Counted from the first letter of the stretch, positions 3,455 to 20,832 are shown. The stretch: DNA of 64,000 nucleotides from Gemmatimonadota bacterium (GCA_003169895.1 PNAE01000007.1:1135222-1199221); one strand, 5' to 3'. Numbers and translations: made by a program. The notes: generated from the letters alone by a model not told the origin.

Positions 3455-3515
3455 CTCACTGCGCTCGGGGCAGGCTCCGCGAGCTTGTCACCCCGAACGG
3501 TAGCGAGGGCGGCAC
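3455..3515. repeat. Degenerate REP-like element (variant of the GTCAYCCTGAGCG family)
   Basis: ctcactgcgctcggggcagg ... cttgtcaccccgaacggtagcgagggcgg resembles the reverse and forward arms of the repeat seen at 9257, 11819, 15746, 19531 and 24263. Confidence 0.3.
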
Positions 3516-4551: not shown

Positions 4552-4899
4552 ATGATTCCCGCCCGCTACCCGCCGCAACTGGAAGATCCCGGTACCCGCC
4601 AGCTCACCGGCCAGCCGGAGCCGGGCATGCGCGACCTCGTCGCGGCCCTGCGCCGTCACTGGTTGCTCCTTGCCTTCAGCGTGTTGCTTTGTGTGGGGCT
4701 GGCCACGATGTACACGTTGCACGCGGTCCGGGTGTTCGAAGCGAGTGCCATGGTGCGCTTCGAGGCCGAGCGGCTCGACCTGCCGCAACTGGTGCAGTTG
4801 CCGTACACCGACAACCTCATCAGCACCGAGATGGAGGTACTTCAGGGACGGAGCGCGGCCTGTGATCCATCGCTCCAGGCGCCCGAAGCAGTGAACTGA
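4552..4899 (+). pseudogene. Truncated Wzz/GumC-type chain-length determinant (N-terminal about 100 aa only)
   Basis: Has TM1 (WLLLAFSVLLCVGLATMY) and the start of the Wzz periplasmic domain (FEASAMVRFEAE...ISTEMEVLQGRSAA). Similarity then stops and the frame terminates, exactly where the convergent Big_2 gene ends (4842). Confidence 0.55.
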
Positions 4900-5828
4900 C
4901 TCACACCGGCCAGCGTCAAAGTTACCGACTCGGGGCTCAAGGCGAGTTGGGTAAGCGTTGGGGCTGGCACTGAAATTGTCACGTCCGACGTGTCGGCCCG
5001 GCCATCGACCGTCGCAGTCGCGATCACCCGGGACGACTCGGCGGTCTGTCCCGCAGTGTATAGCCCGGCGGACGACACCGTGCCACCCGTGGCCGACCAG
5101 GTGACCATGGGCAGGGCGTTCGAGCCATTGCTCCATAGCGCGGCCAGCGCGAACTGGCGGGTCGTCCCGGCCATCAGCGACACCGAAGTGGGGTTAAGAA
5201 TGAGCACTTGCAACGTCGCGGGGATTACCCTCATCTGAAGCGACGCGGACGCCGCGTGCCCGGTAACCTGCGCGGAAATTTCGTATGTCCCGGGATCATC
5301 AGGCGCGGAAAAGACTCCGGCGGGGGAGATCGTTCCGCCGGTCGTACTCCAGGTCATGACTGGAGTCGTCATCACGCTGCCATCGGGGAGGACGGCGTGG
5401 GAAATCACCTGAACCGAGCCGCCCGCGCTCACGACCGAATCCTCCGGAGTCAGTTGGATCGTTGCAATCTCGACGGCGGATGAGTCCGATAGAGCTGGCT
5501 GGGCAACCGATACTCCCCGAATGGTGGCGGTGCCCCCGCCGTTCGCGTGGAACCATCCAGCCTCGGAGACCGAGCCACCGGTCGCGGACCATGTGGCAGC
5601 TACCGCCGTGCTGTCACCATTCCGCAGGTGCCCGTAGGCTACCACGGCAAGACTGTCGCCGACCAGCAGGCGCGCGGACCGCGGCACGACGGACACCCGA
5701 ACGATCTCCGTTCCAACGTCGGTCGTCCCGACCACCTGCGTCGCGGGCGAGCTGCACGATTGGATCCCGAGCACTGTGACGGCCGCGAGGCCGAGCAGCA
5801 CGGTAGACGTGCAAAAACGCTTCAACAC
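4842..5828 (-). CDS. Secreted or lipoprotein with bacterial Ig-like (Big_2-type) repeats
   Basis: Signal peptide MLKRFCTSTVLLGLAAVTVLGIQSC. Repeated about 80-aa units of the form ...VTWSATGGTVSSAGLYTAG.../...ATWSATGGSVSEAGWFHANG.../...MTWSTTGGTISPAGVFSAP... Confidence 0.7.
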   Translation of the reverse strand: MLKRFCTSTVLLGLAAVTVLGIQSCSSPATQVVGTTDVGTEIVRVSVVPRSARLLVGDSLAVVAYGHLRNGDSTAVAATWSATGGSVSEAGWFHANGGGTATIRGVSVAQPALSDSSAVEIATIQLTPEDSVVSAGGSVQVISHAVLPDGSVMTTPVMTWSTTGGTISPAGVFSAPDDPGTYEISAQVTGHAASASLQMRVIPATLQVLILNPTSVSLMAGTTRQFALAALWSNGSNALPMVTWSATGGTVSSAGLYTAGQTAESSRVIATATVDGRADTSDVTISVPAPTLTQLALSPESVTLTLAGVSQFTASGAWSDGSQAALRP

Positions 5829-6243
5829 TCCGGGGTCCGGCTTTCTGGCAGAGGTGTTGCCTGGGCGGTAAACGGCTCAGGTATCTGCCTAGCAAGTATC
5901 GGACCGATAGTGACAACAAATAATACTGCATTATGTCAGCCAGAAATACAGTTATAAAACTATGTAATACACAACGTTAGAAGTAATGTTGTGATACCAT
6001 GTGATTACTTGGCTGCTCTGTTATGATACAGTCGTTTTGTCCGCGTATTCGCGGTTATCATCGTATCTAGTCCGGATACGCTCCGGGAGGAGCCGATACA
6101 GGCCAGGGAAGTGTGTTAGCCGGGAAGTCAGGGGATGAGCGCGCCGGAGACGAGTCTTTGCCGGGAATGAGGGAGGCTTCGTCGGGCAAAGCGGCTTGGC
6201 GCCGCCCCTCCCGCCGCTTCAACACTCACTTCGTTGACCTCCG

Positions 6244-7359
6244 TCAGGCGCGTGCGAGCAGGCTATCGAGAATTCGCTCCGATGTGCGGCCGTCCCATAG
6301 TGGCGGGATACTTCCGAACCTGGCGTCGCCAGCAAGCACGCCGTCGATGTCCGCGGCCAGACTTTCCACGCTCGTCAGTTTGTTACTGCCGAGGGTCACG
6401 GTAACAGGGCGCTCCGTGTTGGGGCGGAGAGTAAGGCACGGCGTTCTGAAAAAAGTGCTCTCCTCCTGTAATCCCCCTGAATCCGTCAACACCAGCCGGG
6501 CGTTTTCCGCGAGCCAGAGTGAGTCGTGGTATCCGATCGGCTCGACGATCTTGAGGGAGACACTATCGTCGAACGCAACGCCGAACCGTCCGCACATCTT
6601 GCGGGTGCGAGGGTGCATCGGGAAAATCACTGGCAGGCGGTCGGAGAGTCGCTGCAGTTCGGCCATGATCGTCGTCAGCCTGCTCGCGTCATCCACGTTG
6701 GTGGGGCGGTGCAAGGTCACGTAGGCAAAGTCGCCGGCACGCACCCCGAGTCGGTGCGGCAGTGTGCTGGCGCGAGCCTGTTCCAGGTTAGCGACCAGTG
6801 CGTCGATCATCACATTCCCGACGAACTCGATCTTCGACTCGGGAATCCCCTCCCGTCTCAGGTTTTCGTTGGCGTCGGCCGAAGGAGTCAACAACAAGTC
6901 AGCCAACGCATCGGTTACCAAGCGGTTGACCTCCTCCGGCATCGTGCGGTCAAAACTCCGCAGACCTGCTTCCACATGCGCAATCCGGATTCCCATCTTG
7001 GCGCAGACCAGGCTGCAGGCCATGGTCGAGTTCACGTCGCCGACCACGACAACCCAGTCCGGCTTGTCCACCTCGCATAACGCCTCGAACTTCGTCATGA
7101 TGTCGGCGGTCTGGCGCGCGTGAGAGCCCGATCCCACGGCGAGGTTGACGTCGGGTGCCGGGATCCCGAGTTCGCTGAAAAAAACCGCGGACATCGCGTC
7201 GTCGTAGTGCTGACCCGTGTGGACGAGACGATACGCCAGCGCCGCGCCGGCGGGGCCGCTGCGACCCGTTCGAGTCCTGATGGTGCGGATGATCGGCGCG
7301 ACCTTCATGAAGTTCGGTCGGGCGCCAGCGACGAGGAGAAGCGTCAGAGGGGGCGTCAT
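6244..7359 (-). CDS. wecB: UDP-N-acetylglucosamine 2-epimerase (non-hydrolysing)
   Basis: LLLVAGARPNFMKVAPI, VHTGQHYD, HVEAGLRSFD and HPRT motifs across the full length. Confidence 0.9.
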   Translation of the reverse strand: MTPPLTLLLVAGARPNFMKVAPIIRTIRTRTGRSGPAGAALAYRLVHTGQHYDDAMSAVFFSELGIPAPDVNLAVGSGSHARQTADIMTKFEALCEVDKPDWVVVVGDVNSTMACSLVCAKMGIRIAHVEAGLRSFDRTMPEEVNRLVTDALADLLLTPSADANENLRREGIPESKIEFVGNVMIDALVANLEQARASTLPHRLGVRAGDFAYVTLHRPTNVDDASRLTTIMAELQRLSDRLPVIFPMHPRTRKMCGRFGVAFDDSVSLKIVEPIGYHDSLWLAENARLVLTDSGGLQEESTFFRTPCLTLRPNTERPVTVTLGSNKLTSVESLAADIDGVLAGDARFGSIPPLWDGRTSERILDSLLARA

Positions 7360-7500
7360 TTGAGAATTCTAGTCCAACGGGCCCGCTATCGGGTCCTCCC
7401 GAAACGCGGCCCCGCCGCGCGCGCGTTCGAACGCTCCCACGATCGACCGACAGATGACCGCCCCACGGACCCGCAGCCACCGTTTCGGTATGCCGCCCAC

Positions 7501-7530
7501 TTGCCCCCCATTCGCCGCCGAGACGATACT
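7501..7530 (+). promoter_or_regulatory. Promoter-like TTGCCC-N18-GATACT abutting the start codons of Uma2 copy 1
   Basis: TTGCCC 7501-7506, 18-nt spacer, GATACT 7525-7530, then ATGcccATG. The same architecture precedes all five copies and the mazE-like gene. Confidence 0.4.
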
Positions 7531-8082
7531 ATGCCCATGCCGCTCGCGAGCCACTACACCGCCGCCGCCGTGCGCGCGCTGCCCGACGACGGCAAGCGCT
7601 ACGAGACCGTCCACGGCGAGCTGCTGGTGACGCCGGCGCCGGGTGGACAACACCAGTTCATTCTCAACCGGCTGACCCTGGTCCTCAACCGGTATCTGGC
7701 GAGTCACGGCCTCGAAGAACTCCTCACCTCGCCCGCAGACATTTCGTTCGGTGAAGCCACGCTGGTGCAGCCCGATCTCTTCGTCGCTGACCTCACCCGG
7801 TTCAAGGAGACCTGGAACTGGGCCGACATCAGGACGCTATACCTGACCATCGAGATCGTGAGCCCGTCCAGCGCCAGGGCCGATCGCATCACCAAGCGCC
7901 GGCTCTATCAGGAACAGCGCATTCCAGCGTATTGGGTCGTGGACATCGACCAGCAGCACGTCGAAGTATGGGCGCCCGATGCGCGATTCCCGATCATCGA
8001 GCGTGAGCAGCTGACCTGGCGGCATCCGGCGCTCGACACGAGCTGCATGGTGGACCTGGTCAAGCTGTTCGGGCAGCATTGA
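7531..8082 (+). CDS. Uma2 family (DUF820) PD-(D/E)xK putative endonuclease, paralog 1 of 5
   Basis: ALPDDGKRYETVHGELLVTPAPGG, PDLFVAD, LTIEIVSPSS and TKRRLYQEQRIPAYWVVD match the Uma2 D...E.xS...K pattern. The track ORF (7120-) is over-extended upstream. Alternative start is the second ATG at 7537. Confidence 0.8.
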   Translation: MPMPLASHYTAAAVRALPDDGKRYETVHGELLVTPAPGGQHQFILNRLTLVLNRYLASHGLEELLTSPADISFGEATLVQPDLFVADLTRFKETWNWADIRTLYLTIEIVSPSSARADRITKRRLYQEQRIPAYWVVDIDQQHVEVWAPDARFPIIEREQLTWRHPALDTSCMVDLVKLFGQH

Positions 8083-8163
8083 CCCTTCGGCGCGCTCTTT
8101 CGTGCCGCGGCCGGCCGAGCGTACCTTGCATCGTATCGGCAGACCGCTGGTCGGAGACTGCCG

Positions 8164-8598
8164 ATGCCCGTGACCGCGAAACTTTCCCAGGCCTTCTACG
8201 ACCGTCTCGGCCACCAGGTGGCCGACGAGATGGTGGACTGGTTCAACCAGGTGGACGCTGCCAACCGTTCTGATCTGCGTGAGCTCAATGAGCTGAACTT
8301 CGCGCGCTTCGGCGCGACGCTCGAGCAGCGTGCGGCGGAGCTCTCCGCCAAGATGGAGCAGCGCTACGGCGACCTGTCGGCGAAGGTCGATCGATTTGCT
8401 GCGGAGCTGTCGGCGAAGATCGACCAGGTATCAGCGAACGTTGATCGGCAGATCGCTCAGCTGTCAGCGAGCGTGGATCGCCAGATCGCGGCTCTCGCGC
8501 TCACGGTCGAGCACCAGCAGGTGATCCAGATGCGGTGGATGATCGGGATGTGGGTGGTTGTGCTTGTCGCTGTGATGGGACTCTGGATCCGGCGCTAG
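8164..8598 (+). CDS. Tail-anchored coiled-coil membrane protein (DUF1640-like), copy 1
   Basis: GGAG 7 nt upstream of the ATG. Central 11-residue repeats (AAELSAKMEQR/YGDLSAKVDRF/AAELSAKIDQV/SANVDRQIAQL/SASVDRQIAAL). C-terminal TM RWMIGMWVVVLVAVMGLWIRR. Confidence 0.65.
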   Translation: MPVTAKLSQAFYDRLGHQVADEMVDWFNQVDAANRSDLRELNELNFARFGATLEQRAAELSAKMEQRYGDLSAKVDRFAAELSAKIDQVSANVDRQIAQLSASVDRQIAALALTVEHQQVIQMRWMIGMWVVVLVAVMGLWIRR

Positions 8599-8689
8599 TC
8601 CGGCGAGCGCGCGTTCGAATGATCCGCGCCCCAGCGAACTGATGATCCGGGCCGATCACGTGCGGCTACACTCGGCGCATGCGCCCCAC

Positions 8690-8719
8690 TTGCCCCCAAT
8701 TCGCCGCCGAGACGATACT
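8690..8719 (+). promoter_or_regulatory. Promoter-like TTGCCC-N18-GATACT, Uma2 copy 2
   Basis: TTGCCC 8690-8695, GATACT 8714-8719, then ATGtccATG. Confidence 0.4.
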
Positions 8720-9268
8720 ATGTCCATGCCGCTCACCAGCTATTTCACCGCTGACGCAGTGCGTGCCCTCCCCGACGACGGCAAGCGCTATGAGACCGTC
8801 CACGGCGAGCTGCTCATGACGCCGGCGCCGGGCGGGCAGCACCAACCCTTCCTCAGCGACCTCCACGTTATTCTCGGCTCCTATCTGGCGGCCAACGGCA
8901 TCAAGGGCGTCCTCGAGTCGCCGGCGGACATTTCGTTCGACGACGGCACCCTGGTGCAGCCTGATCTCTTCGTTGCGGACATCGCGGCGTTCCTGCGTTC
9001 CGGCGAGTGGAAGGACGTCCGGACGCTGTACCTGGTGGTTGAAGTTGTGAGCCAGTCCAGCGACACGTCCGATCGCGTCACCAAACGTCGGCTCTATCAG
9101 GAACATCGCATTCCGGAATACTGGGTCGTCGACATCGACCAGCATCAGGTCGAGGTGTGGACCCCTGACGCACTCTTCCCGGTCATCGAGCGCGAGCGGT
9201 TGGTATGGCGGCATCCGGCGCTTGAGGCCGACTGCACCGTGGATCTGGCGAAGCTGTTGTCACCCTGA
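8720..9268 (+). CDS. Uma2 family putative endonuclease, paralog 2 of 5 (C-terminus remodelled by a REP element)
   Basis: Same motifs as copy 1. It ends ...VDLAKLLSP* instead of ...VDLVKLFGQH*, because the last codons and the stop come from the repeat arm TTGTCACCCTGA. Confidence 0.8.
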   Translation: MSMPLTSYFTADAVRALPDDGKRYETVHGELLMTPAPGGQHQPFLSDLHVILGSYLAANGIKGVLESPADISFDDGTLVQPDLFVADIAAFLRSGEWKDVRTLYLVVEVVSQSSDTSDRVTKRRLYQEHRIPEYWVVDIDQHQVEVWTPDALFPVIERERLVWRHPALEADCTVDLAKLLSP

Positions 9269-9325
9269 GTGTGAGGGGCTGCGCTCAGGGTGACAAGCGT
9301 GTGAGGGCCTGCGCTCAGGGTGACA
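9257..9325. repeat. REP-like palindromic element (one forward arm, two reverse arms)
   Basis: ttgtcaccctgag / gtgtgaggggctgcgctcagggtgacaa / gcgtgtgagggcctgcgctcagggtgaca. Confidence 0.75.
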
Positions 9326-9413
9326 CGGTGGCGCGCGTTCGAACGATCCGCGCCCCTCCGAACCGGTGATCCGGGCCGATCACGTGCGGCTACACTCGGC
9401 GCATTCGCCCCAC

Positions 9414-9443
9414 TTGCCCACCTCTGTCCGCCGAGACGATACT
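9414..9443 (+). promoter_or_regulatory. Promoter-like TTGCCC-N18-GATACT, Uma2 copy 3
   Basis: TTGCCC 9414-9419, GATACT 9438-9443, then ATGtccATG. Confidence 0.4.
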
Positions 9444-9995
9444 ATGTCCATGCCGCTCACCAGCTATTTCACCGCTGACGCAGTGCGTGCCCTCCCCGAC
9501 GACGGCAAGCGCTATGAGACCGTCCACGGCGAGCTGCTCATGACGCCGGCGCCGGGCGGACAGCACCAACCTCTTCTCGGCGACCTGTACCTGGTGCTCG
9601 GCAACTATCTGGCCGCCAACGGTATCCGCGGACTGCTTTTCTCCCCTGCGGACATTTCTTTCGGCGATGATACGCTTGTCCAGCCGGACCTCTTCGTCGC
9701 CGACTGCGCGGCATTCTACCGGTCCGGCAACTGGTCCGACGTGCGGACGCTCCACTTGGTGGTGGAGATCATCTCCCGGTCGAGCGTGAAGGCGGATCGT
9801 ACTACCAAGCGTCGCCTGTATCAGGAACAGCGTATTCCAGCGTATTGGGTCGTGGACATCGATCAGCGCCAGGTCGAGGTGTGGACCCCCGACGCATTCT
9901 TCCCGGTCATCGAGCGTGAGCAGCTGACCTGGCGGCATCCGGCGCTCGACACGAGTTGCATGGTGGACCTGGTCAGGCTGTTCGGGCAGCATTGA
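9444..9995 (+). CDS. Uma2 family putative endonuclease, paralog 3 of 5
   Basis: N-terminal 43 aa identical to copy 2. The C-terminal tail and downstream spacer are as in copy 1. Confidence 0.8.
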   Translation: MSMPLTSYFTADAVRALPDDGKRYETVHGELLMTPAPGGQHQPLLGDLYLVLGNYLAANGIRGLLFSPADISFGDDTLVQPDLFVADCAAFYRSGNWSDVRTLHLVVEIISRSSVKADRTTKRRLYQEQRIPAYWVVDIDQRQVEVWTPDAFFPVIEREQLTWRHPALDTSCMVDLVRLFGQH

Positions 9996-10076
9996 CCCTT
10001 CGGCGCGCTCTTTCGTGCCGCGGCCGGCCGAGCGTACCTTGTATCGTATCGGCAGACCCCTGGTCGGAGACTGCCG

Positions 10077-10424
10077 ATGCCCGTGACCGCGAAACTTTCC
10101 CAGGCCTTCTACGACCGTCTCGGCCACCAGGTGGCCGACGAGATGGTGGACTGGTTCAATCAGGTGGACGCTGCCAACCGTTCTGATCTGCGTGAGCTCA
10201 ATGAGCTGAACTTCGCGCGCTTCGACGCGACGCTGAAGCAGCAACTCTCTGAGTTTTCGCGGGTGCTCGATTCTCGCCTCGCCGAGTTTTCTCGGGCCTT
10301 CGAACGCGAGCTCGCCAAACTCGCCATCGAGCTGAAGGATCAGCAAGTCATCCAGATGCGGTGGATGATCGGGGTGTGGTTGGTGGTGCTTGTCGCTGTG
10401 ATGGGACTCTGGATCCGGCGCTAG
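10077..10424 (+). CDS. Tail-anchored coiled-coil membrane protein (DUF1640-like), copy 2
   Basis: The first 49 aa and the C-terminal TM segment are near-identical to copy 1. The central coiled coil differs in sequence and is 29 aa shorter. Confidence 0.65.
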   Translation: MPVTAKLSQAFYDRLGHQVADEMVDWFNQVDAANRSDLRELNELNFARFDATLKQQLSEFSRVLDSRLAEFSRAFERELAKLAIELKDQQVIQMRWMIGVWLVVLVAVMGLWIRR

Positions 10425-10516
10425 TCCGGCGAGCGCGCGTTCGAACGCTCCCCACCATCGACCAACAGATGACCGGCTGTGCGGTCCCGCGGCCACCGTT
10501 CCGGCATGCCGCCTGC

Positions 10517-10546
10517 TTGCCTCCCGTTCGCCGCCGAGACGATACT
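10517..10546 (+). promoter_or_regulatory. Promoter-like TTGCCT-N18-GATACT, Uma2 copy 4
   Basis: TTGCCT 10517-10522, GATACT 10541-10546, then ATGcccATG. Confidence 0.4.
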
Positions 10547-11098
10547 ATGCCCATGCCGCTCGCGAGCCACTACACCGCCGACGCCGTGCGCGCGCTGCCC
10601 GACGACGGCAACCGCTACGAAACCGTCCACGGCGAGTTGCTAGTGACGCCGGCACCCGGTGGCCCGCATCAGCTGATGCTGTTTCGCCTGATCGCCATCG
10701 TGCAGCCCTATCTCGCGGCCGATGGCCTCGAGCAACTCCTTGGCGCGCCCGCGGATCTGTCATGGGGCGGGGATACGCTCACCCAGCCCGACCTCTTCGT
10801 GGCCGACCTCAGCGCGTTCCGGCGCTCCGGCAAGTGGGCCGACATCCGGACGGTCTATCTGGTGATCGAGATCGTGAGCCCGTCGAGCGCGAAGGCGGAT
10901 CGTACTACCAAGCGTCGCCTCTATCAGGAACAGCACGTTCCCGAATACTGGATCGTCGACATCGATCAGCGCCAGGTCGAGGTGTGGACCCCCGACGCAC
11001 TCTTCCCGATCATTGAGCGTGAGCAGCTGACCTGGCGGCATCCGGCGCTTGAGGCGGGCTGCGTGGTGGACCTGGTCAAGCTGTTCGGGCAGCATTGA
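10547..11098 (+). CDS. Uma2 family putative endonuclease, paralog 4 of 5
   Basis: Same motif set (PDLFVAD, IEIVSPSS, TKRRLYQEQ). Confidence 0.8.
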   Translation: MPMPLASHYTADAVRALPDDGNRYETVHGELLVTPAPGGPHQLMLFRLIAIVQPYLAADGLEQLLGAPADLSWGGDTLTQPDLFVADLSAFRRSGKWADIRTVYLVIEIVSPSSAKADRTTKRRLYQEQHVPEYWIVDIDQRQVEVWTPDALFPIIEREQLTWRHPALEAGCVVDLVKLFGQH

Positions 11099-11218
11099 CC
11101 CTTCGGCGCGCGCGTTCGTACCGCTAGCCCGGCGAGCGCGCGTTCGAACGCTCCCACCATCGACCAACAGATGACCGGCTGTGCGGTCCCGCGGCCACCG
11201 TTCCGGCATGCCGCCTGC

Positions 11219-11248
11219 TTGCCTCCTATTCGCCGCCGAGACGATACT
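11219..11248 (+). promoter_or_regulatory. Promoter-like TTGCCT-N18-GATACT, Uma2 copy 5
   Basis: TTGCCT 11219-11224, GATACT 11243-11248, then ATGtccATG. Confidence 0.4.
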
Positions 11249-11800
11249 ATGTCCATGCCGCTCGCGAACTACTACACTGCCGACGCCGTGCGCGCGCTGC
11301 CCGACGACGGCAACCGCTACGAGACCGTCCACGGCGAATTGCTGGTGACGCCGGCGCCGGGTGGGCGACACCAGTACGTTCTCGCGGAACTCTTTCGTGT
11401 CCTCGACGGGTACCTGGTCAGTCACGGAATCAAGGGGATCCTGTGGTCGCCCGCGGATATTTCCTTCGGCGACGACACGCTGGTGCAGCCCGACCTCTTC
11501 GTGGCCGACCTCGAAGCGTTCAGGCGCTCGGGCAAGTGGGCCGACATCCGCGCGCTCTACCTGACCATCGAGATCGTGAGCCCGTCCAGCGCCAGGGCCG
11601 ATCGGATCACCAAGCGTCGGCTCTATCAGGAACAGCGCATTCCCCAATACTGGGTCGTCGACATCGACCAGCAGCAGGTCGAAGTGTGGGCGCCCGATGC
11701 GCGATTCCCGATTATTGAGCGTGAGCAGCTGACATGGCGCCATCCGGCGCTTGACACGAGCTGCGTGGTGGACCTGGTCAAGCTGTTCGGGCAGCATTGA
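11249..11800 (+). CDS. Uma2 family putative endonuclease, paralog 5 of 5
   Basis: Same motif set. The C-terminal half is almost identical to copy 1. Confidence 0.8.
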   Translation: MSMPLANYYTADAVRALPDDGNRYETVHGELLVTPAPGGRHQYVLAELFRVLDGYLVSHGIKGILWSPADISFGDDTLVQPDLFVADLEAFRRSGKWADIRALYLTIEIVSPSSARADRITKRRLYQEQRIPQYWVVDIDQQQVEVWAPDARFPIIEREQLTWRHPALDTSCVVDLVKLFGQH

Positions 11801-11818
11801 CCCTTCGGCCTCACACTC

Positions 11819-11940
11819 TTGTCACCCTGAGCGAAGCGAAGGGGCGGAGTGATGACTTAGTACCAAGTTCCGCCCCTTCGCCTGCGGCTCAGGGTGACAA
11901 GGGCGCCACTCCGCCCCTTCGCCTGCGGCTCAGGGTGACA
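11819..11940. repeat. REP-like palindromic element (one forward arm, two reverse arms)
   Basis: cttgtcaccctgagcgaagcgaaggggcgg ... ccgccccttcgcctgcggctcagggtgacaa ... ccgccccttcgcctgcggctcagggtgaca. Confidence 0.8.
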
Positions 11941-11978
11941 CAAGCCATCCCCCGACGTCGCTAGACTTCCCTCCCCCC

Positions 11979-12767
11979 ATGCCCCTGACTCCAGCCCATG
12001 CTGCCGCGGCGCCGCTGCTGCACCGCCTGATCCGCCCATTGGGCCTCAGTATCCCGATCTCCGCCCTCGTCATCGGCACCATGACGCCGGACTTCGAGTA
12101 CCTTATTCGTCTCACTCCTGGTATTCGCGCCTGGCACACGCCGCTCGGGCTTCTGGAGTTCTGCTTACCTGTCGGCCTGGCGACGTGGTGGGTATTTCGT
12201 GTGATCATCGGCCCGGCGCTGCTGCGACTGCTACCGCCTGGGCTCGGCGCGGCGGCACGCGCGCAGATCGCGCCGGGATCGACATTCCGACTGATCCCCG
12301 GCGCAAGCGTCGCCGTCCTCCTCGGCGCCGTCAGTCACGACTTGTGGGACAGCTTCACGCATGAGGCAGGCTGGGGCGTCCATGAGATCCCTGCGCTCGA
12401 TGCCTCCGTCCCGCTCGGGGGAACCGGTGCAACGCCATGGTATTCGATCCTGCAGTACGGGAGTTCTGCTATCGGCCTGATTGTCATCATTGCCATCCTC
12501 TGGCAGTGGGTCGCGGCACACCCGAAGGCCGATCGCCACGTTCCGGTGGGCCAGCGGGCATGGCGCATCCGCGAACTGGGAGTGCTGCTGCTGGTGGGAG
12601 TGGCGGGAGCGGTACTCAATGCGTCGCGCGGCCGCCATTCCGGCCTCTCATGGACGCTCGGCCTGGCGGCGGTCGGGGGCATGTCGGCGCTCGCACTGGC
12701 GCTCCTGGCCTACGGGATTATCGATTCGATCCGTCACCGCGACGCACCGGCCCGCCGCGACGGCTGA
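11979..12767 (+). CDS. DUF4184-like integral membrane protein (putative metal-dependent hydrolase)
   Basis: N-terminus MPLTPAHAAAAPLL..., PDFEYLIR, later SHDLWDSFTH, and multiple TM segments, as I recall for DUF4184. Confidence 0.55.
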   Translation: MPLTPAHAAAAPLLHRLIRPLGLSIPISALVIGTMTPDFEYLIRLTPGIRAWHTPLGLLEFCLPVGLATWWVFRVIIGPALLRLLPPGLGAAARAQIAPGSTFRLIPGASVAVLLGAVSHDLWDSFTHEAGWGVHEIPALDASVPLGGTGATPWYSILQYGSSAIGLIVIIAILWQWVAAHPKADRHVPVGQRAWRIRELGVLLLVGVAGAVLNASRGRHSGLSWTLGLAAVGGMSALALALLAYGIIDSIRHRDAPARRDG

Positions 12768-12819
12768 CGACCAGGTCTCCTCGGATTGAGGCGCGGACAC
12801 CACGCGCTGCCTGAAGCGC

Positions 12820-12849
12820 TTGCCCCACCCGACATACTACGGTTATACT
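12820..12849 (+). promoter_or_regulatory. Promoter-like TTGCCC-N18-TATACT five nt upstream of the antitoxin ATG
   Basis: TTGCCC 12820-12825, TATACT 12844-12849, ATG at 12855, and no Shine-Dalgarno. Confidence 0.4.
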
Positions 12850-12854
12850 GCGGT

Positions 12855-13091
12855 ATGAAGACCGCGATCTCGATTCCCGATGACCTCTTCGATTCCGCCG
12901 ACGCCTTGGCGGACCGCCTCGGCCTCTCGCGCAGCGCTCTCTATGCCGACGCGGTCGCCGAGTTCGTGGCGAAGCATCAAGGCACCCACATCACCGACCA
13001 ACTGAACACCCTCTACGCCACCGAGCCCAGTCGGCTCGACCGCCACATCAAGCGCGCCCAAGCCAAGGCCGCCCAGTCCGCTCGTTGGTAG
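12855..13091 (+). CDS. Ribbon-helix-helix (CopG/MazE-like) antitoxin
   Basis: MKTAISIPDDLFDSADALADRLGLSRSALYADAVAEFV is a typical RHH N-terminus. It overlaps the downstream toxin gene by 7 nt. Confidence 0.75.
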   Translation: MKTAISIPDDLFDSADALADRLGLSRSALYADAVAEFVAKHQGTHITDQLNTLYATEPSRLDRHIKRAQAKAAQSARW

Positions 13092-13435
13092 TACAGCGGG
13101 GCGAGGTCTGGTGGATCACGCTCCCGGAGCCCGCCGGCTCGGAGCCCGGTTTTCGCCGACCCGTGATCGTCGTCCAGGCAAACGCGTTCAATCGGAGCCG
13201 CATCCAGACCGTGATCGCGGTACTGCTCAGCTCGAACCTGCGGCTATTGGATGCCCCGGGTAATGCATTGGTCCCCGCCAATGCCTCAGGTCTACCGAGA
13301 GACTCCGTCGCGAATGTTTCACAGCTCATCACCATCGACCGCGATGATCTTACGGATCGGGTCGGAAGATTGCCCGGCCGCGTGATGGCCCGCGTGGACC
13401 TCGGACTTCGCATCGTACTCGACCTGGAGCCATAG
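13085..13435 (+). CDS. mazF: PemK/MazF-family type II toxin endoribonuclease
   Basis: RGEVWWITLPEPAGSEPGFRRPVIVVQ...LPRDSVANVSQLITIDRDDL fits the MazF fold signature. TTG start overlaps the antitoxin stop. Confidence 0.8.
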   Translation: MVVQRGEVWWITLPEPAGSEPGFRRPVIVVQANAFNRSRIQTVIAVLLSSNLRLLDAPGNALVPANASGLPRDSVANVSQLITIDRDDLTDRVGRLPGRVMARVDLGLRIVLDLEP

Positions 13436-13729
13436 CGAGTCGCCAGCGCGCGCTGAGAGGAGCCGACCAATAGAGGGGTCGGCCATCCGCCTTGTGGCGA
13501 GCCCACGACAGACCGATGCAGCCGCAACACACGCTCGCCCTCCCGGGCCGGCCTCTCACCGCTGCGGCAGCTTTCCATAAACCATTGCTACTGGATGACT
13601 TGCATGTCTCTCCGCGAAAGAACCGGTTCAAGCCCGGAACTTGCTTTTTGCATCGCCTCGTAACAAGGCGCTATTCGCTGGTCTCGCAGTTTACCGATGC
13701 CGGTTACCCGGCCTGATGGAGTTCTGGCA

Positions 13730-14479
13730 ATGTCGATCCTGTCCTCACGCACGTTTCGGACTTCGTGCCTCGGAACCTTCCTGGCGTTTGGTCTCATTGT
13801 CTCGAACGCGCACTCGGCTGCGGCACAGACCACGCTGATCTTCGATCCGTCGAACTCGTGTGCCGGTGCCTGCGTCCCCTTTGGCACATTGCTGGACCCC
13901 AATTACGGCTCGGGCGGCGGCGTCGCCGTGTCCAACGGCGTGTTGAGCGCGTTCGGCGACCCGATAGTGGGGCTGACTCCGGGACTGTTCTGGGGGGGCG
14001 GCTTTGGACCGTTCAGCAGCGGATTCACATTCGGCTCGTGGGATTACACGTTCCCAATCACGCCCAATGTCGGGGCGTTCGTCTTCAGCGATAACAGTCA
14101 TCAGCTTCAGTTCCTTGGCATGGACATGGCCTCCAACGACGATCCAGCGACCGCCTATGTTAGAGTATACGATCTGGCCGGCAATCTCGTGTGGACGGGT
14201 GGGACAGGCTCCCCCCAGTCCTACACACTGAACTGTTGCGGGAACAGTGGCATTGTTACGCCGACCGGTCCGGCCCCGGCGGTCCTCAATGGATTCGTGG
14301 TCGAGTTCACCTTGTCTCCCGTCTATCCGCTTTCAAACCTCTGGATCGACAACCTCGAATTTGGCCTGGATGGCGCAGGTGCGCCGCAGAGCACCGTGCC
14401 AGAGCCGGCAACCATGAGCCTCGTGGCACTCGGATTGGTCGGCATGGCCGGCGCGGGATTCCGCAAGCGCACGCGCTGA
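13730..14479 (+). CDS. PEP-CTERM sorting-domain protein
   Basis: N-terminal signal MSILSSRTFRTSCLGTFLAFGLIVSNAHSAAAQ. C-terminal VPEPATMSLVALGLVGMAGAGFRKRTR (PEP motif, TM segment, basic tail). Confidence 0.85.
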   Translation: MSILSSRTFRTSCLGTFLAFGLIVSNAHSAAAQTTLIFDPSNSCAGACVPFGTLLDPNYGSGGGVAVSNGVLSAFGDPIVGLTPGLFWGGGFGPFSSGFTFGSWDYTFPITPNVGAFVFSDNSHQLQFLGMDMASNDDPATAYVRVYDLAGNLVWTGGTGSPQSYTLNCCGNSGIVTPTGPAPAVLNGFVVEFTLSPVYPLSNLWIDNLEFGLDGAGAPQSTVPEPATMSLVALGLVGMAGAGFRKRTR

Positions 14480-14497
14480 ACCGCTCAGCAACAATGT

Positions 14498-14535
14498 GAA
14501 AACGGGCGGGCCACTCGGTGGGCCGCCCGTTTTTC
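14498..14535. terminator. Bidirectional rho-independent terminator
   Basis: gaaaACGGGCGGGCCactcggtGGGCCGCCCGTttttcg: a GC-rich stem flanked by an A-tract and a T-tract, between convergent genes. Confidence 0.8.
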
Positions 14536-15714: not shown

Positions 15715-15745
15715 GAATGGAAATGTAGCGGCAGGCTTGAGAAGC

Positions 15746-15856
15746 TTGTCACCCTGAGCGCAGCGAAGGGGCGGAGCGTGGTACTAAGGCGCCATCCCGC
15801 CCCTTCGCTGCGCTCAGGGTGACAAACCGCCCCTTCGCTGCGCTCAGGGTGACAAA
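15746..15856. repeat. REP-like palindromic element (one forward arm, two reverse arms)
   Basis: ttgtcaccctgagcgcagcgaaggggcgg ... ccgccccttcgctgcgctcagggtgacaa (x2). Confidence 0.8.
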
Positions 15857-19530: not shown

Positions 19531-19674
19531 AGTGTCATCCTGAGCGAAGCAACGGCGAAGCCGTTGCGAAGTCGAAGGACCTCGGCTCCGCGCGAAAAAG
19601 GCTGGCCTTGCCTTGCGGCGCCGAGGTCCTTCGACTTCGTGCGGCCTGCGGCCGCACTTCGCTCAGGATGACAA
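19531..19674. repeat. REP-like nested palindrome (GTCATCCTGAGCGAAGC variant)
   Basis: Outer arms are gtgtcatcctgagcgaagc / cttcgctcaggatgacaa. Inner arms are gaagtcgaaggacctcggc / gccgaggtccttcgacttc. The right arm supplies the last codons and stop of the adjacent gene. Confidence 0.8.
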
Positions 19675-20832
19675 GGCGGCATCGAGATCCGCCTGCAAGT
19701 CCGCCACGTCCTCGATGCCGACCGACAATCTCACCAGCGAATCCGTCAGCCCCATTTCTTCACGCAATGCCTTGGGTACCGATGCATGGGTCATCGAGGC
19801 CGGATGGCCGATCAGGCTCTCCACGCCGCCGAGCGATTCGGCCAGCGCGAAGATCCGGGTGCCTTCCGCCACCTTGCGCGCGCGTTCCAAGCTGCCGAGT
19901 TCCAGCGAAATGATCCCGCCGAACGCGGACATCTGCCGTTTCGCCAACTCGTGCTGCGGATGCTCGGGCAGGCCCGGGTAATACACTCGCGTGACATCCT
20001 TGCGGCCGTCGAGCCACCGCGCGAGCTGCATTGCGTTGTCGCAATGCGCGCGCATCCTGAGCGGCAGCGTCTTCACGCCTCGAAGCGCCAGCCAGCAGTC
20101 AAACGGGCCCGGCACGCCGCCGGCCGCGTTCTGCAGGAAAGCAATCCGTTCAGCGAGGTCGTCGCGCGAGGTCAGCAGCGCGCCGCCGACCATATCGGAA
20201 TGCCCGTTCAGATACTTGGTCGTGGAATGCAGCACGATGTCGGCGCCGAAGGACAACGGCCGCTGGAGCATCGGCGTCGCGAACGTGTTGTCGGTGACCA
20301 GCAGGACACCGAGGGCCTGCGCCATGTCGCCCAGCGCGCGAAGGTCCACCAGGAACATCATCGGATTGCTGGGCGTCTCGCAGAACAGCATGCGCGTGTT
20401 CGGCGTCATTGCCCGTTCCACGTTCGTGACGTCGCGCATGTCGACGAACGAGAAGGTCAGGCCGAAGCGTCCGTAGATCTGGTCCATCTGCCGGTGGCTG
20501 CCGCCGTAGATGTTGTTGCCGACGACGACATGATCGCCGGCGGACAGCAGCTTGAGCGTAGTGTCGAGTGCGGCGAGCCCCGAGGCAAACGCAAAGCCAT
20601 GGGCGGCCCCCTCGAGCGCGGCGAGGTTGGCTTCCCAGACTTCCCGCGTCGGGTTCCGCGTGCGGGCGTACTCGTAGCCATGGTGCGGCCGGCCGAGCCC
20701 ATCCTGGATGTAGGTCGAAGTCTGGTAGATCGGTGGCATCACTGCGCCGGCGACCGGATCGGGGCGCTGGCCAGCGTGCACCGCGAGTGTGGCGAGGTGA
20801 TGGCTGCGGTCGGCTTCGGAAGCACGAGTCAT
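19663..20832 (-). CDS. PLP-dependent transsulfuration enzyme (cystathionine gamma-synthase / lyase family)
   Basis: STTKYLNGHSDMVGG (PLP-lysine motif) and full-length Cys/Met metabolism fold. Confidence 0.88.
   Translation of the reverse strand: MTRASEADRSHHLATLAVHAGQRPDPVAGAVMPPIYQTSTYIQDGLGRPHHGYEYARTRNPTREVWEANLAALEGAAHGFAFASGLAALDTTLKLLSAGDHVVVGNNIYGGSHRQMDQIYGRFGLTFSFVDMRDVTNVERAMTPNTRMLFCETPSNPMMFLVDLRALGDMAQALGVLLVTDNTFATPMLQRPLSFGADIVLHSTTKYLNGHSDMVGGALLTSRDDLAERIAFLQNAAGGVPGPFDCWLALRGVKTLPLRMRAHCDNAMQLARWLDGRKDVTRVYYPGLPEHPQHELAKRQMSAFGGIISLELGSLERARKVAEGTRIFALAESLGGVESLIGHPASMTHASVPKALREEMGLTDSLVRLSVGIEDVADLQADLDAALSS

Follow-up and report, generated by a model that had tools for sequence, protein, structure and literature searches.

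A tandem array of five Uma2 genes with homogenised flanks and an apparently unconverted, variable centre in a Gemmatimonadales genome

In the HsdS proteins of type I restriction systems, target-recognition domains lie between conserved repeats. The Uma2 proteins (also called DUF820 or COG4636) are a very large family of putative nucleases for which there are four crystal structures and which make up as much as 2% of the genes in some cyanobacteria. Genomes hold many Uma2 paralogues, and tandem duplication together with recombination among the copies was proposed in 2005 (PMC551604); the active site of the family consists of an Asp on strand beta2, a Glu on strand beta3, a Lys shifted to the helix that follows, and a conserved His (Feder and Bujnicki 2005, PMC551604). 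In a two-hybrid screen of Synechocystis, nine DUF820 proteins interacted with themselves and paralogues interacted with one another (PMC2779905), and a survey of the cargo genes of Tn7 elements counted COG4636 among the restriction endonucleases. Here we describe a tandem array of five Uma2 genes, all on one strand, at positions 7531-11800 of a 64,000-nucleotide stretch of a Gemmatimonadales genome (GCA_003169895.1, PNAE01000007.1:1135222-1199221; the whole stretch is referred to below as the window, and positions are counted from its first letter). A first-pass annotation had noticed two short hypervariable segments in these genes and had likened them to specificity-determining or partner-recognition segments under diversifying selection. 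We find that the two segments are where the paralogues differ most and that, as judged by comparison of the sequences, they are old mosaic segments and not the products of recent or ongoing diversifying selection.

The array consists of copy 1 (7531-8082, plus strand, 183 residues), copy 2 (8720-9268, plus strand, 182 residues), copy 3 (9444-9995, plus strand, 183 residues), copy 4 (10547-11098, plus strand, 183 residues) and copy 5 (11249-11800, plus strand, 183 residues). The product of copy 1 matches the Pfam family Uma2 (PF05685; DUF820/COG4636) with 93.3 bits against a cut-off of 27 (E = 1.5e-26), and all five copies score 325-343 bits with a hidden Markov model of the subfamily. Copy 1 has H41, Q42, D82, E108 and K122; the active-site set of H41, D82, E108 and K122 is complete in all five copies and invariant across 116 aligned sequences. 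The active site is the PD-EXX-K variant, with the His placed before helix alpha1. By sequence, copy 1 also matches the solved structures 9Y1L, 6OKH and 3OT2, each of whose entries holds two chains. An AlphaFold2 model built on the 116 sequences (predicted local distance difference test [pLDDT] 90, predicted template-modelling score [pTM] 0.87) found 6OKH, 3OT2, 9Y1L and 1WDJ as its top matches in Foldseek, with a probability of 1.00 and template-modelling (TM) scores of 0.66-0.79. The five genes are therefore put forward as putative PD-(D/E)xK nucleases with a predicted restriction-endonuclease-like fold, and in each defining feature that could be tested they are members of the known family. 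They share with the family as previously described (PMC551604) the Pfam match, the PD-EXX-K variant with its His, the fold, and the proliferation of paralogues with recombination; they differ in belonging to a Gemmatimonadales subfamily rather than a cyanobacterial one. The closest homologues all come from metagenome-assembled genomes (MAGs) of Gemmatimonadales or Gemmatimonadota, and the search made here returned more than 4000 close relatives in Gemmatimonadota.

We define the two variable segments as W1 (codons 43-66) and W2 (codons 87-100). In copy 1 they lie at 7657-7728 (FILNRLTLVLNRYLASHGLEELLT) and 7789-7830 (DLTRFKETWNWADI), respectively; in copies 2 to 5, W1 occupies 8846-8917, 9570-9641, 10673-10744 and 11375-11446, and W2 occupies 8978-9019, 9702-9743, 10805-10846 and 11507-11548. 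The variable peptides quoted in the first-pass annotation are all present in the translations, but its numbering was off by one or two codons, the true residues being 42-67 and 88-100. Its description of the copies as near-identical was too strong, their pairwise identity being 67-82% for protein and 74-85% for nucleotides, and so was its description of their flanks as almost invariant, since 9 of the 40 alignment columns vary in residues 1-40 and 34 of the 84 (40%) in residues 99-182. The clustering that it reported near residues 41-66 is nonetheless borne out: the most diverse 26-residue window begins at residue 42, with a mean pairwise difference of 0.56 against 0.255 overall (p = 1e-4 by column shuffling). 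The second patch, reported at about residues 86-98, is likewise real but weaker, the best 13-residue window outside the first beginning at residue 88 (0.48; p = 0.037 among the remaining columns). Among 111 homologues from other genomes, column entropy again peaks in W1 and W2 (1.76 and 1.91 bits, as compared to 0.57-1.15 elsewhere), and column variability in these homologues is correlated with that in the five copies (Spearman 0.72). Since the columns that vary most are shared by the two sets, the pattern belongs to the subfamily and is nothing peculiar to the array.

We compared synonymous and non-synonymous change by pooling Nei-Gojobori counts over the ten pairs of copies for each codon segment. 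The proportions of synonymous (pS) and non-synonymous (pN) differences were 0.33 and 0.06 in codons 1-40 (ratio of the corresponding rates, dN/dS, 0.13), 0.62 and 0.375 in codons 41-66 (dN/dS 0.40), 0.58 and 0.11 in codons 67-85 (dN/dS 0.11), 0.39 and 0.31 in codons 86-98 (dN/dS 0.74), and 0.39 and 0.12 in codons 99-182 (dN/dS 0.24). Non-synonymous divergence is thus three to six times higher in the variable segments than in the flanks, as would be expected if the copies had diverged rapidly after a recent duplication under ongoing positive selection, for example in an arms race with phage inhibitors or in pursuit of changing targets. W2, which in this array has a ratio of 0.74 and no excess of synonymous change, would fit such an explanation, as would the listing of Uma2 by PADLOC as the candidate defence gene PDC-S03. 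Copy 1 matches four PDC-S03 profiles (E = 4.5e-22 to 2.8e-12); PDC-S03 itself, with which copy 1 has this profile match in common, is only a candidate defence gene, and the neighbourhood of the array is no clear defence island, with one MazF-type toxin pair nearby.

Ongoing positive selection fares poorly, however, when synonymous sites are considered. Synonymous divergence in W1 is raised equally and is saturated, reaching a pS of 0.93 in the pair formed by copies 4 and 5, and it is nearly as high in the neighbouring codons 67-85; this is the outcome that the first-pass annotation had named in advance as the mark of old mosaic segments rather than selection. Nor are the copies recent, their dS being about 0.64 overall and 1.3 in W1. 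The two segments have the highest dN/dS in the gene, but the ratio stays below 1 in both. The same was true when changes were counted by parsimony in the manner of single-likelihood ancestor counting (SLAC) over 95 genes of the subfamily, with separate trees for three partitions: dN/dS was 0.64 in W1, 0.55 in W2 and 0.21-0.41 elsewhere, and not one of the 182 codons had a significant excess of non-synonymous change, even nominally. The most variable codons (46, 50, 53, 54, 66 and 92) had ratios of 1.0-1.35 that were not significant, as would be expected of neutral sites. Finally, as described below, the W1 type is retained by the closest relatives from other genomes. We regard ongoing positive selection as largely refuted and hence as an improbable explanation of the two segments.

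Sliding nucleotide identity (with positions given relative to the ATG) and a runs-permutation test on the variable sites bore out the proposal that the flanks have been homogenised, revealing significant mosaic tracts. Copies 2 and 3 are approximately 100% identical from -74 to +90, a conversion tract (8646-8810 = 9370-9534, plus strand) that takes in the promoter-like region described below and codons 1-30 (runs test p = 0.0002). Between copies 4 and 5, identity is 100% from -89 to -45 and 93-100% from there to +75; between copies 1 and 4 it is 100% from -14 to +45. Towards the 3' end, identity is 93-100% between copies 1 and 5 from +316 to +540, 93-100% between copies 3 and 4 from +406 to +480, and 97-100% between copies 1 and 3 from +466 to past +700. 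The last of these belongs to a duplicated or converted tract (7991-8311 = 9904-10224, plus strand, 98% identical) that includes the 3' end of the Uma2 gene, the spacer and the 5' end of a coiled-coil gene. From nucleotide 106 to 300, identity is no higher than about 85% in any pair. Pairwise p values in the runs test were 0.0002-0.0004 for pairs 4-5, 2-3, 1-5 and 1-3; the global p values were 0.0012 or less for the first three of these pairs and 0.07 for pair 1-3. As the flanks have been homogenised among varying partners, which two copies are most alike changes from segment to segment.

A comparison of independent closest pairs by locus led to the same conclusion. Closest pairs from the same locus have a pS of about 0.5 in codons 41-98 and of 0.23-0.24 in the flanks, whereas closest pairs from different genomes have a nearly flat pS of 0.25-0.38. 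The flanks are therefore young because of gene conversion, and it is the centre that shows the true, old age of the paralogues. On this evidence the array appears to be a gene family under concerted evolution by gene conversion, with an unconverted central island.

Is the pattern found in other arrays of this subfamily? We examined 37 within-array pairs from 13 arrays, consisting of arrays of two to five copies in 12 other genomes and the ten pairs of this window. The pattern recurs in the 12 arrays from other genomes. Mean nucleotide identity over the 37 pairs is 0.86 in codons 1-40, 0.56 in W1, 0.79 in codons 67-86, 0.67 in W2 and 0.81 in codons 101-182. Of the five segments, W1 ranks lowest in 31 of the 37 pairs; its divergence between co-resident copies is 36-62% at the nucleotide level, and only one pair has a W1 that is common to both members. 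In two of the arrays (L007 and L066), conversion has reached both borders of W1, with an identity of 0.85-0.95 in codons 67-86, and W1 itself is 0.50-0.79 identical. The first of these (L007, 5277-8640 of CAYQXR010000020.1, from a Gemmatimonadaceae MAG) is a five-copy Uma2 array with flanks that are 0.85-0.96 identical. Its copies at 6725 and 8085 share W1 (0.89) but not W2 (0.60), and its copies at 5277, 6001 and 8085 share W2 (0.90-0.95) but not W1. To judge from these identities, it is the clearest case of W1 and W2 being reassorted as cassettes between copies.

We also compared the copies with their individual relatives. The closest relatives of copies 1, 2, 3 and 5, found in other metagenomes, have the same type of W1, the identity of 0.71-0.92 in W1 equalling that of the remaining protein (0.81-0.89). 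By contrast, an unrelated W1 is often found in those proteins whose flanks are most similar. An example is the protein P0004, whose flanks are 84-89% identical to those of copies 1, 4 and 5 and whose W1 matches that of copy 5 only (92%). The protein closest to copy 1 (P0002, 81% identity) is a positional orthologue, its gene adjoining the same epimerase gene (wecB). On the soil metagenome contig that carries it (L085, 2469 nucleotides) a DUF2442 gene follows and there is no array, and hence array content at this position varies between related genomes. In the four closest cross-genome pairs, W1 has a pS of 0.27, a pN of 0.095 and a ratio of 0.35, as compared to ratios of 0.27 for W2 and 0.16-0.24 for the other segments; two orthologous pairs from a further two loci (L073 and L074) gave a ratio of 0.32 for W1, the counts over all six pairs being about 25 non-synonymous and about 27 synonymous changes. 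Within a type, W1 and W2 would seem to be under purifying selection about as strong as that on the rest of the protein, although the changes counted are few. The suggestion that the segments behave like specificity determinants was thus supported in two respects, the conservation of type across genomes (dN/dS about 0.35) and the radical difference between co-resident copies, and unsupported in its appeal to ongoing selection.

These comparisons bear on a neutral explanation, according to which W1 and W2 are nothing other than the surface segments of the fold with the weakest constraint: they drifted fastest, became too diverged to form heteroduplexes and so became immune to conversion, and have no paralogue-specific function. 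Drift of this kind would account for the coincidence of the high-entropy columns in the homologues and in the array, for the saturation of synonymous sites in W1, and for ratios that are the highest in the gene and yet do not exceed 1, with even the most variable codons near unity. It does not readily account for the ratio of W1 between the closest cross-genome relatives, which is close to that of the remaining protein rather than to 1, or for the arrays L007 and L066, in which conversion extends to both borders of a 72-nucleotide W1 and yet sharing of W1 is confined to one of the 37 pairs. We consider neutral drift to be possible but doubtful; it is nevertheless a serious competitor, and the main one, of the explanation proposed below.

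Where do the variable segments lie in the protein? In the AlphaFold2 model, helix alpha1 spans residues 39-57 and is followed by strands at 64-66, 71-74, 77-79 and 83-86 (the last beside D82), helical turns at 91-94 and 97-99, strand beta3 at 103-109 (with E108) and helix alpha2 at 121-128 (with K122). In the model, W1 corresponds to alpha1 from just past the invariant H41-Q42, together with the next loop, and W2 to the connector between beta2 and beta3, that is, between the strands that carry the catalytic Asp and the catalytic Glu. The placement given in the first-pass annotation, the first helix after the GxxH motif and a second patch, is in agreement with the model, with the patch following the catalytic-Asp strand. 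Entropy along alpha1 varies with a helical periodicity (best angle 105 degrees, p = 0.005): the variable face is formed by positions 43, 46, 50, 53, 54 and 57, and the conserved face by positions 41, 45, 48, 52, 55 and 56. As the variable positions are opposite the conserved face, they are predicted to be directed away from the core, and this periodicity argues against their being buried. The high-entropy positions are 44% hydrophobic and are rich in aromatic residues at 43, 49 and 66, a composition that is unlike that of a free solvent-exposed surface, contrary to the neutral explanation, and that would suit contact with protein better than contact with bulk solvent. This placement draws on the predicted secondary structure, on the periodicity along the helix and on how near the segments lie in sequence to the catalytic residues.

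We propose the following explanation for the array. Its five genes would represent five anciently diverged types of a single Gemmatimonadales Uma2 subfamily, each with a promoter-like motif of its own. The promoter together with codons 1-35, and the 3' half of the gene, would have been homogenised repeatedly by gene conversion or unequal recombination, and a central block of about codons 36-100 would escape homogenisation and so be saturated at both synonymous and non-synonymous sites. The region of the catalytic strand (codons 67-86) is held by strong purifying selection, and it is for this reason that two visibly variable patches, W1 and W2, are seen. The types would stay conserved within type and distinct within arrays, with W1 and W2 being reassorted between copies as in L007. 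We are confident of this evolutionary description, comprising old types, converted flanks, an unconverted centre, purifying selection within types and recurrence across genomes. The whole explanation goes further, in that W1, with W2, would confer on each paralogue its individual specificity, and in this form it is in our judgement evenly balanced between being right and being wrong. One candidate for such a specificity is the choice of dimer partner, which would keep co-expressed paralogues from cross-pairing; the two chains in each of the three PDB entries matched by sequence accord with it. Since DUF820 proteins both self-associate and cross-interact, co-resident paralogues face a problem of partner choice that a variable interface could solve; the Synechocystis paralogues in which those interactions were seen (PMC2779905) are from a different phylum, their genes are dispersed, and the interface was not mapped there. 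The other candidate is the nucleic-acid substrate that is accepted beside the active site. In either case, it would be the retention of distinct cassettes that protects them against being overwritten through conversion.

Several considerations weigh against the functional part of this explanation. The estimate for W1 within types comes from four pairs with, between them, 20 non-synonymous and 21 synonymous changes, and the cross-genome partners were picked by overall identity, which biases that estimate slightly. The dN/dS counts, whether by the Nei-Gojobori method or by SLAC-like parsimony, are approximate under saturation and recombination; they exceeded 1 in no comparison, so that it is only purifying selection that is directly demonstrated. 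Conversion tracts can be brought to a halt at W1 by high divergence alone. Over-dispersion of W1 within arrays was not seen, in accord with neutral drift: co-resident copies have an identity of 0.45 in W1, as compared to 0.39 for random pairs from the subfamily with similar flanks. Co-resident copies being no more different than random pairs, nothing indicates that W1 types actively repel one another. A placement of W1 and W2 on one surface, at a dimer interface or facing the substrate, is hypothetical. Lastly, the literature that we searched yielded no functional study giving a biochemical function for any Uma2 protein.

How does the array compare with HsdS and with other families under concerted evolution? 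As in those systems, the flanks appear to be exchanged by recombination, short, old and diverged segments are kept distinct, and two modules are reassorted (in L007). Unlike in HsdS, the variable segments are not whole recognition domains: they are stretches of 24 and 14 residues in a single small domain. We saw neither a dedicated recombinase nor a switch based on inverted repeats, and a role in specificity is a proposal. Concerted evolution with an island of divergence is of a known kind and the genes are of a known family, and neither will surprise a specialist. The literature searched contained no description of a variable alpha1/connector cassette, of flank homogenisation or of a gene-borne promoter motif in the family. 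This bacterial tandem array is a clean natural case of concerted evolution around an island of divergence. It also narrows the search for function to about 24 plus 14 residues beside the active site, where paralogue identity is concentrated, and it provides a concrete pointer to a likely specificity element of a large orphan nuclease family. A bolder reading is that Uma2 arrays are combinatorial repertoires of specificity, in which the homogenised ends serve as recombination handles for exchanging and reassorting W1 and W2 cassettes. We think this unlikely; if true, each array would yield a set of homodimeric nucleases that differ in partner or target specificity, or in both, possibly acting in defence (PDC-S03), and the reading would provide a mechanism as well as a first handle on function for the family.

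Each of the five genes has its own copy of a promoter-like motif, CTTGCC-N-CGCCGAG-N2-GAtacT, located directly before an ATGnnnATG start (7500-7530, 8689-8719, 9413-9443, 10516-10546 and 11218-11248, plus strand; with the start included, 7500-7539, 8689-8728, 9413-9452, 10516-10555 and 11218-11257). The motif is also present upstream of Uma2 genes at other loci (L001-L079), and its key bases are invariant in 66 to 69 of 69 loci from different genomes: the T, T and G of CTTGC in all 69, followed by CGCCGAG and by an xAxxxT hexamer whose A is conserved in 68 and whose T in all 69. The hexamer ends six nucleotides before the second ATG, and the "MxM" start is universal. The spacing between the hexamer and the second ATG suggests that the mRNA may be leaderless and begin at residue 3; alternatively, the GAG of the motif could be a weak ribosome-binding site for the first ATG. 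A scan for sigma-70 promoters with a threshold of 9 of 12 positions called no promoter, the motif matching at 8 of 12, so that its presumed function as a promoter rests on conservation.

Two genes for coiled-coil proteins are interspersed with the Uma2 genes. The first, between copies 1 and 2 (8164-8598, plus strand), encodes a protein of 144 residues with a C-terminal membrane anchor and contains 33-nucleotide repeats at 8417-8489; its paralogue, between copies 3 and 4 (10077-10424), encodes a protein of 115 residues. The N-terminal 49 residues of the two proteins are identical, the membrane anchors are near-identical and the central coiled coils are different, and this layout of homogenised ends and a variable middle is the same as that of the Uma2 genes. 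Both proteins have weak matches to CCDC90-like/DUF1640 proteins. We rejected the coiled-coil gene as an obligate partner of Uma2, relatives of it being found near only 2 of the 79 other Uma2 loci (L050 and, weakly, L027).

The array also contains a palindromic element resembling repetitive extragenic palindromic (REP) sequences. Its core, GCTCAGGGTGACAAG, has 11 matches against 0.05 expected, and sites of the element lie at 9256-9327, 11813-11942, 15745-15856, 3484-3498 and 19661-19675. After copy 2 the REP-like element takes the form of a 30-nucleotide tandem repeat that supplies the last codons and the stop, which is why that copy has the odd C-terminus LLSP in place of LFGQH. Just past copy 5, a long REP-like hairpin (11813-11905, no strand assigned; -65 kcal/mol, z = -6.5) closes the array. 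A search of Rfam over positions 5000-14500 found no known RNA family, only a sub-threshold match to a hairpin, and no tRNA genes were found in the window.

Tandem repeats misassemble easily, and it might be asked whether the variation is an artefact of a chimeric MAG assembly or else programmed, by a diversity-generating retroelement or the switching of silent cassettes. We consider these explanations highly improbable. In three other assemblies (L080, L081 and L083), two of them on contigs of more than 1 Mb, 12.5 kb around the array is 100% identical and the gene callers find the same seven genes, from which we conclude that the array is not an assembly artefact; we looked in these same assemblies for strain-level polymorphism in the array and found none. 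Neither silent cassettes nor a retroelement of this kind were found: no extra partial Uma2 cassettes or W1-like templates are present elsewhere in the 64 kb (a weak match at 48.3-48.6 kb proved not to be an Uma2 gene). The variation is not confined to one type of base, and every copy has its full length and an intact active site. A fourth assembly (L082) does break off and deviate at a repeat boundary near 10446: at the end of its contig (corresponding to 10446-10585), the sequence that follows the second coiled-coil gene runs on as the version found at 8515-8758 and not as the region upstream of copy 4. This deviation is probably an assembly break induced by the repeats, a structural variant being possible. 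The same assembly lacks 177 nucleotides, corresponding to 5444-5621 of the window, inside an open reading frame (ORF) of 328 residues (4842-5828).

Long ORFs on the minus strand lie opposite the array (for example, 9390-10496 and 10760-11797), and the Uma2 ORFs have in-frame upstream extensions (for example, from 7120, 8642 and 9366). We discounted both as genes and regard them as by-products of a G+C content of 65%, homologues and the gene callers of the other assemblies using the MxMPL start. The neighbours of the array include a UDP-N-acetylglucosamine (UDP-GlcNAc) 2-epimerase gene (wecB) and genes for a DUF4184 protein, a MazF-type toxin pair and a PEP-CTERM protein. The toxin pair, 1 kb downstream of the array at 12855-13435, comprises a candidate ribbon-helix-helix-like antitoxin and a PemK/MazF toxin (E = 1.3e-24); in Synechocystis, too, DUF820 genes have been noted adjoining toxin-antitoxin modules (PMC4963859).

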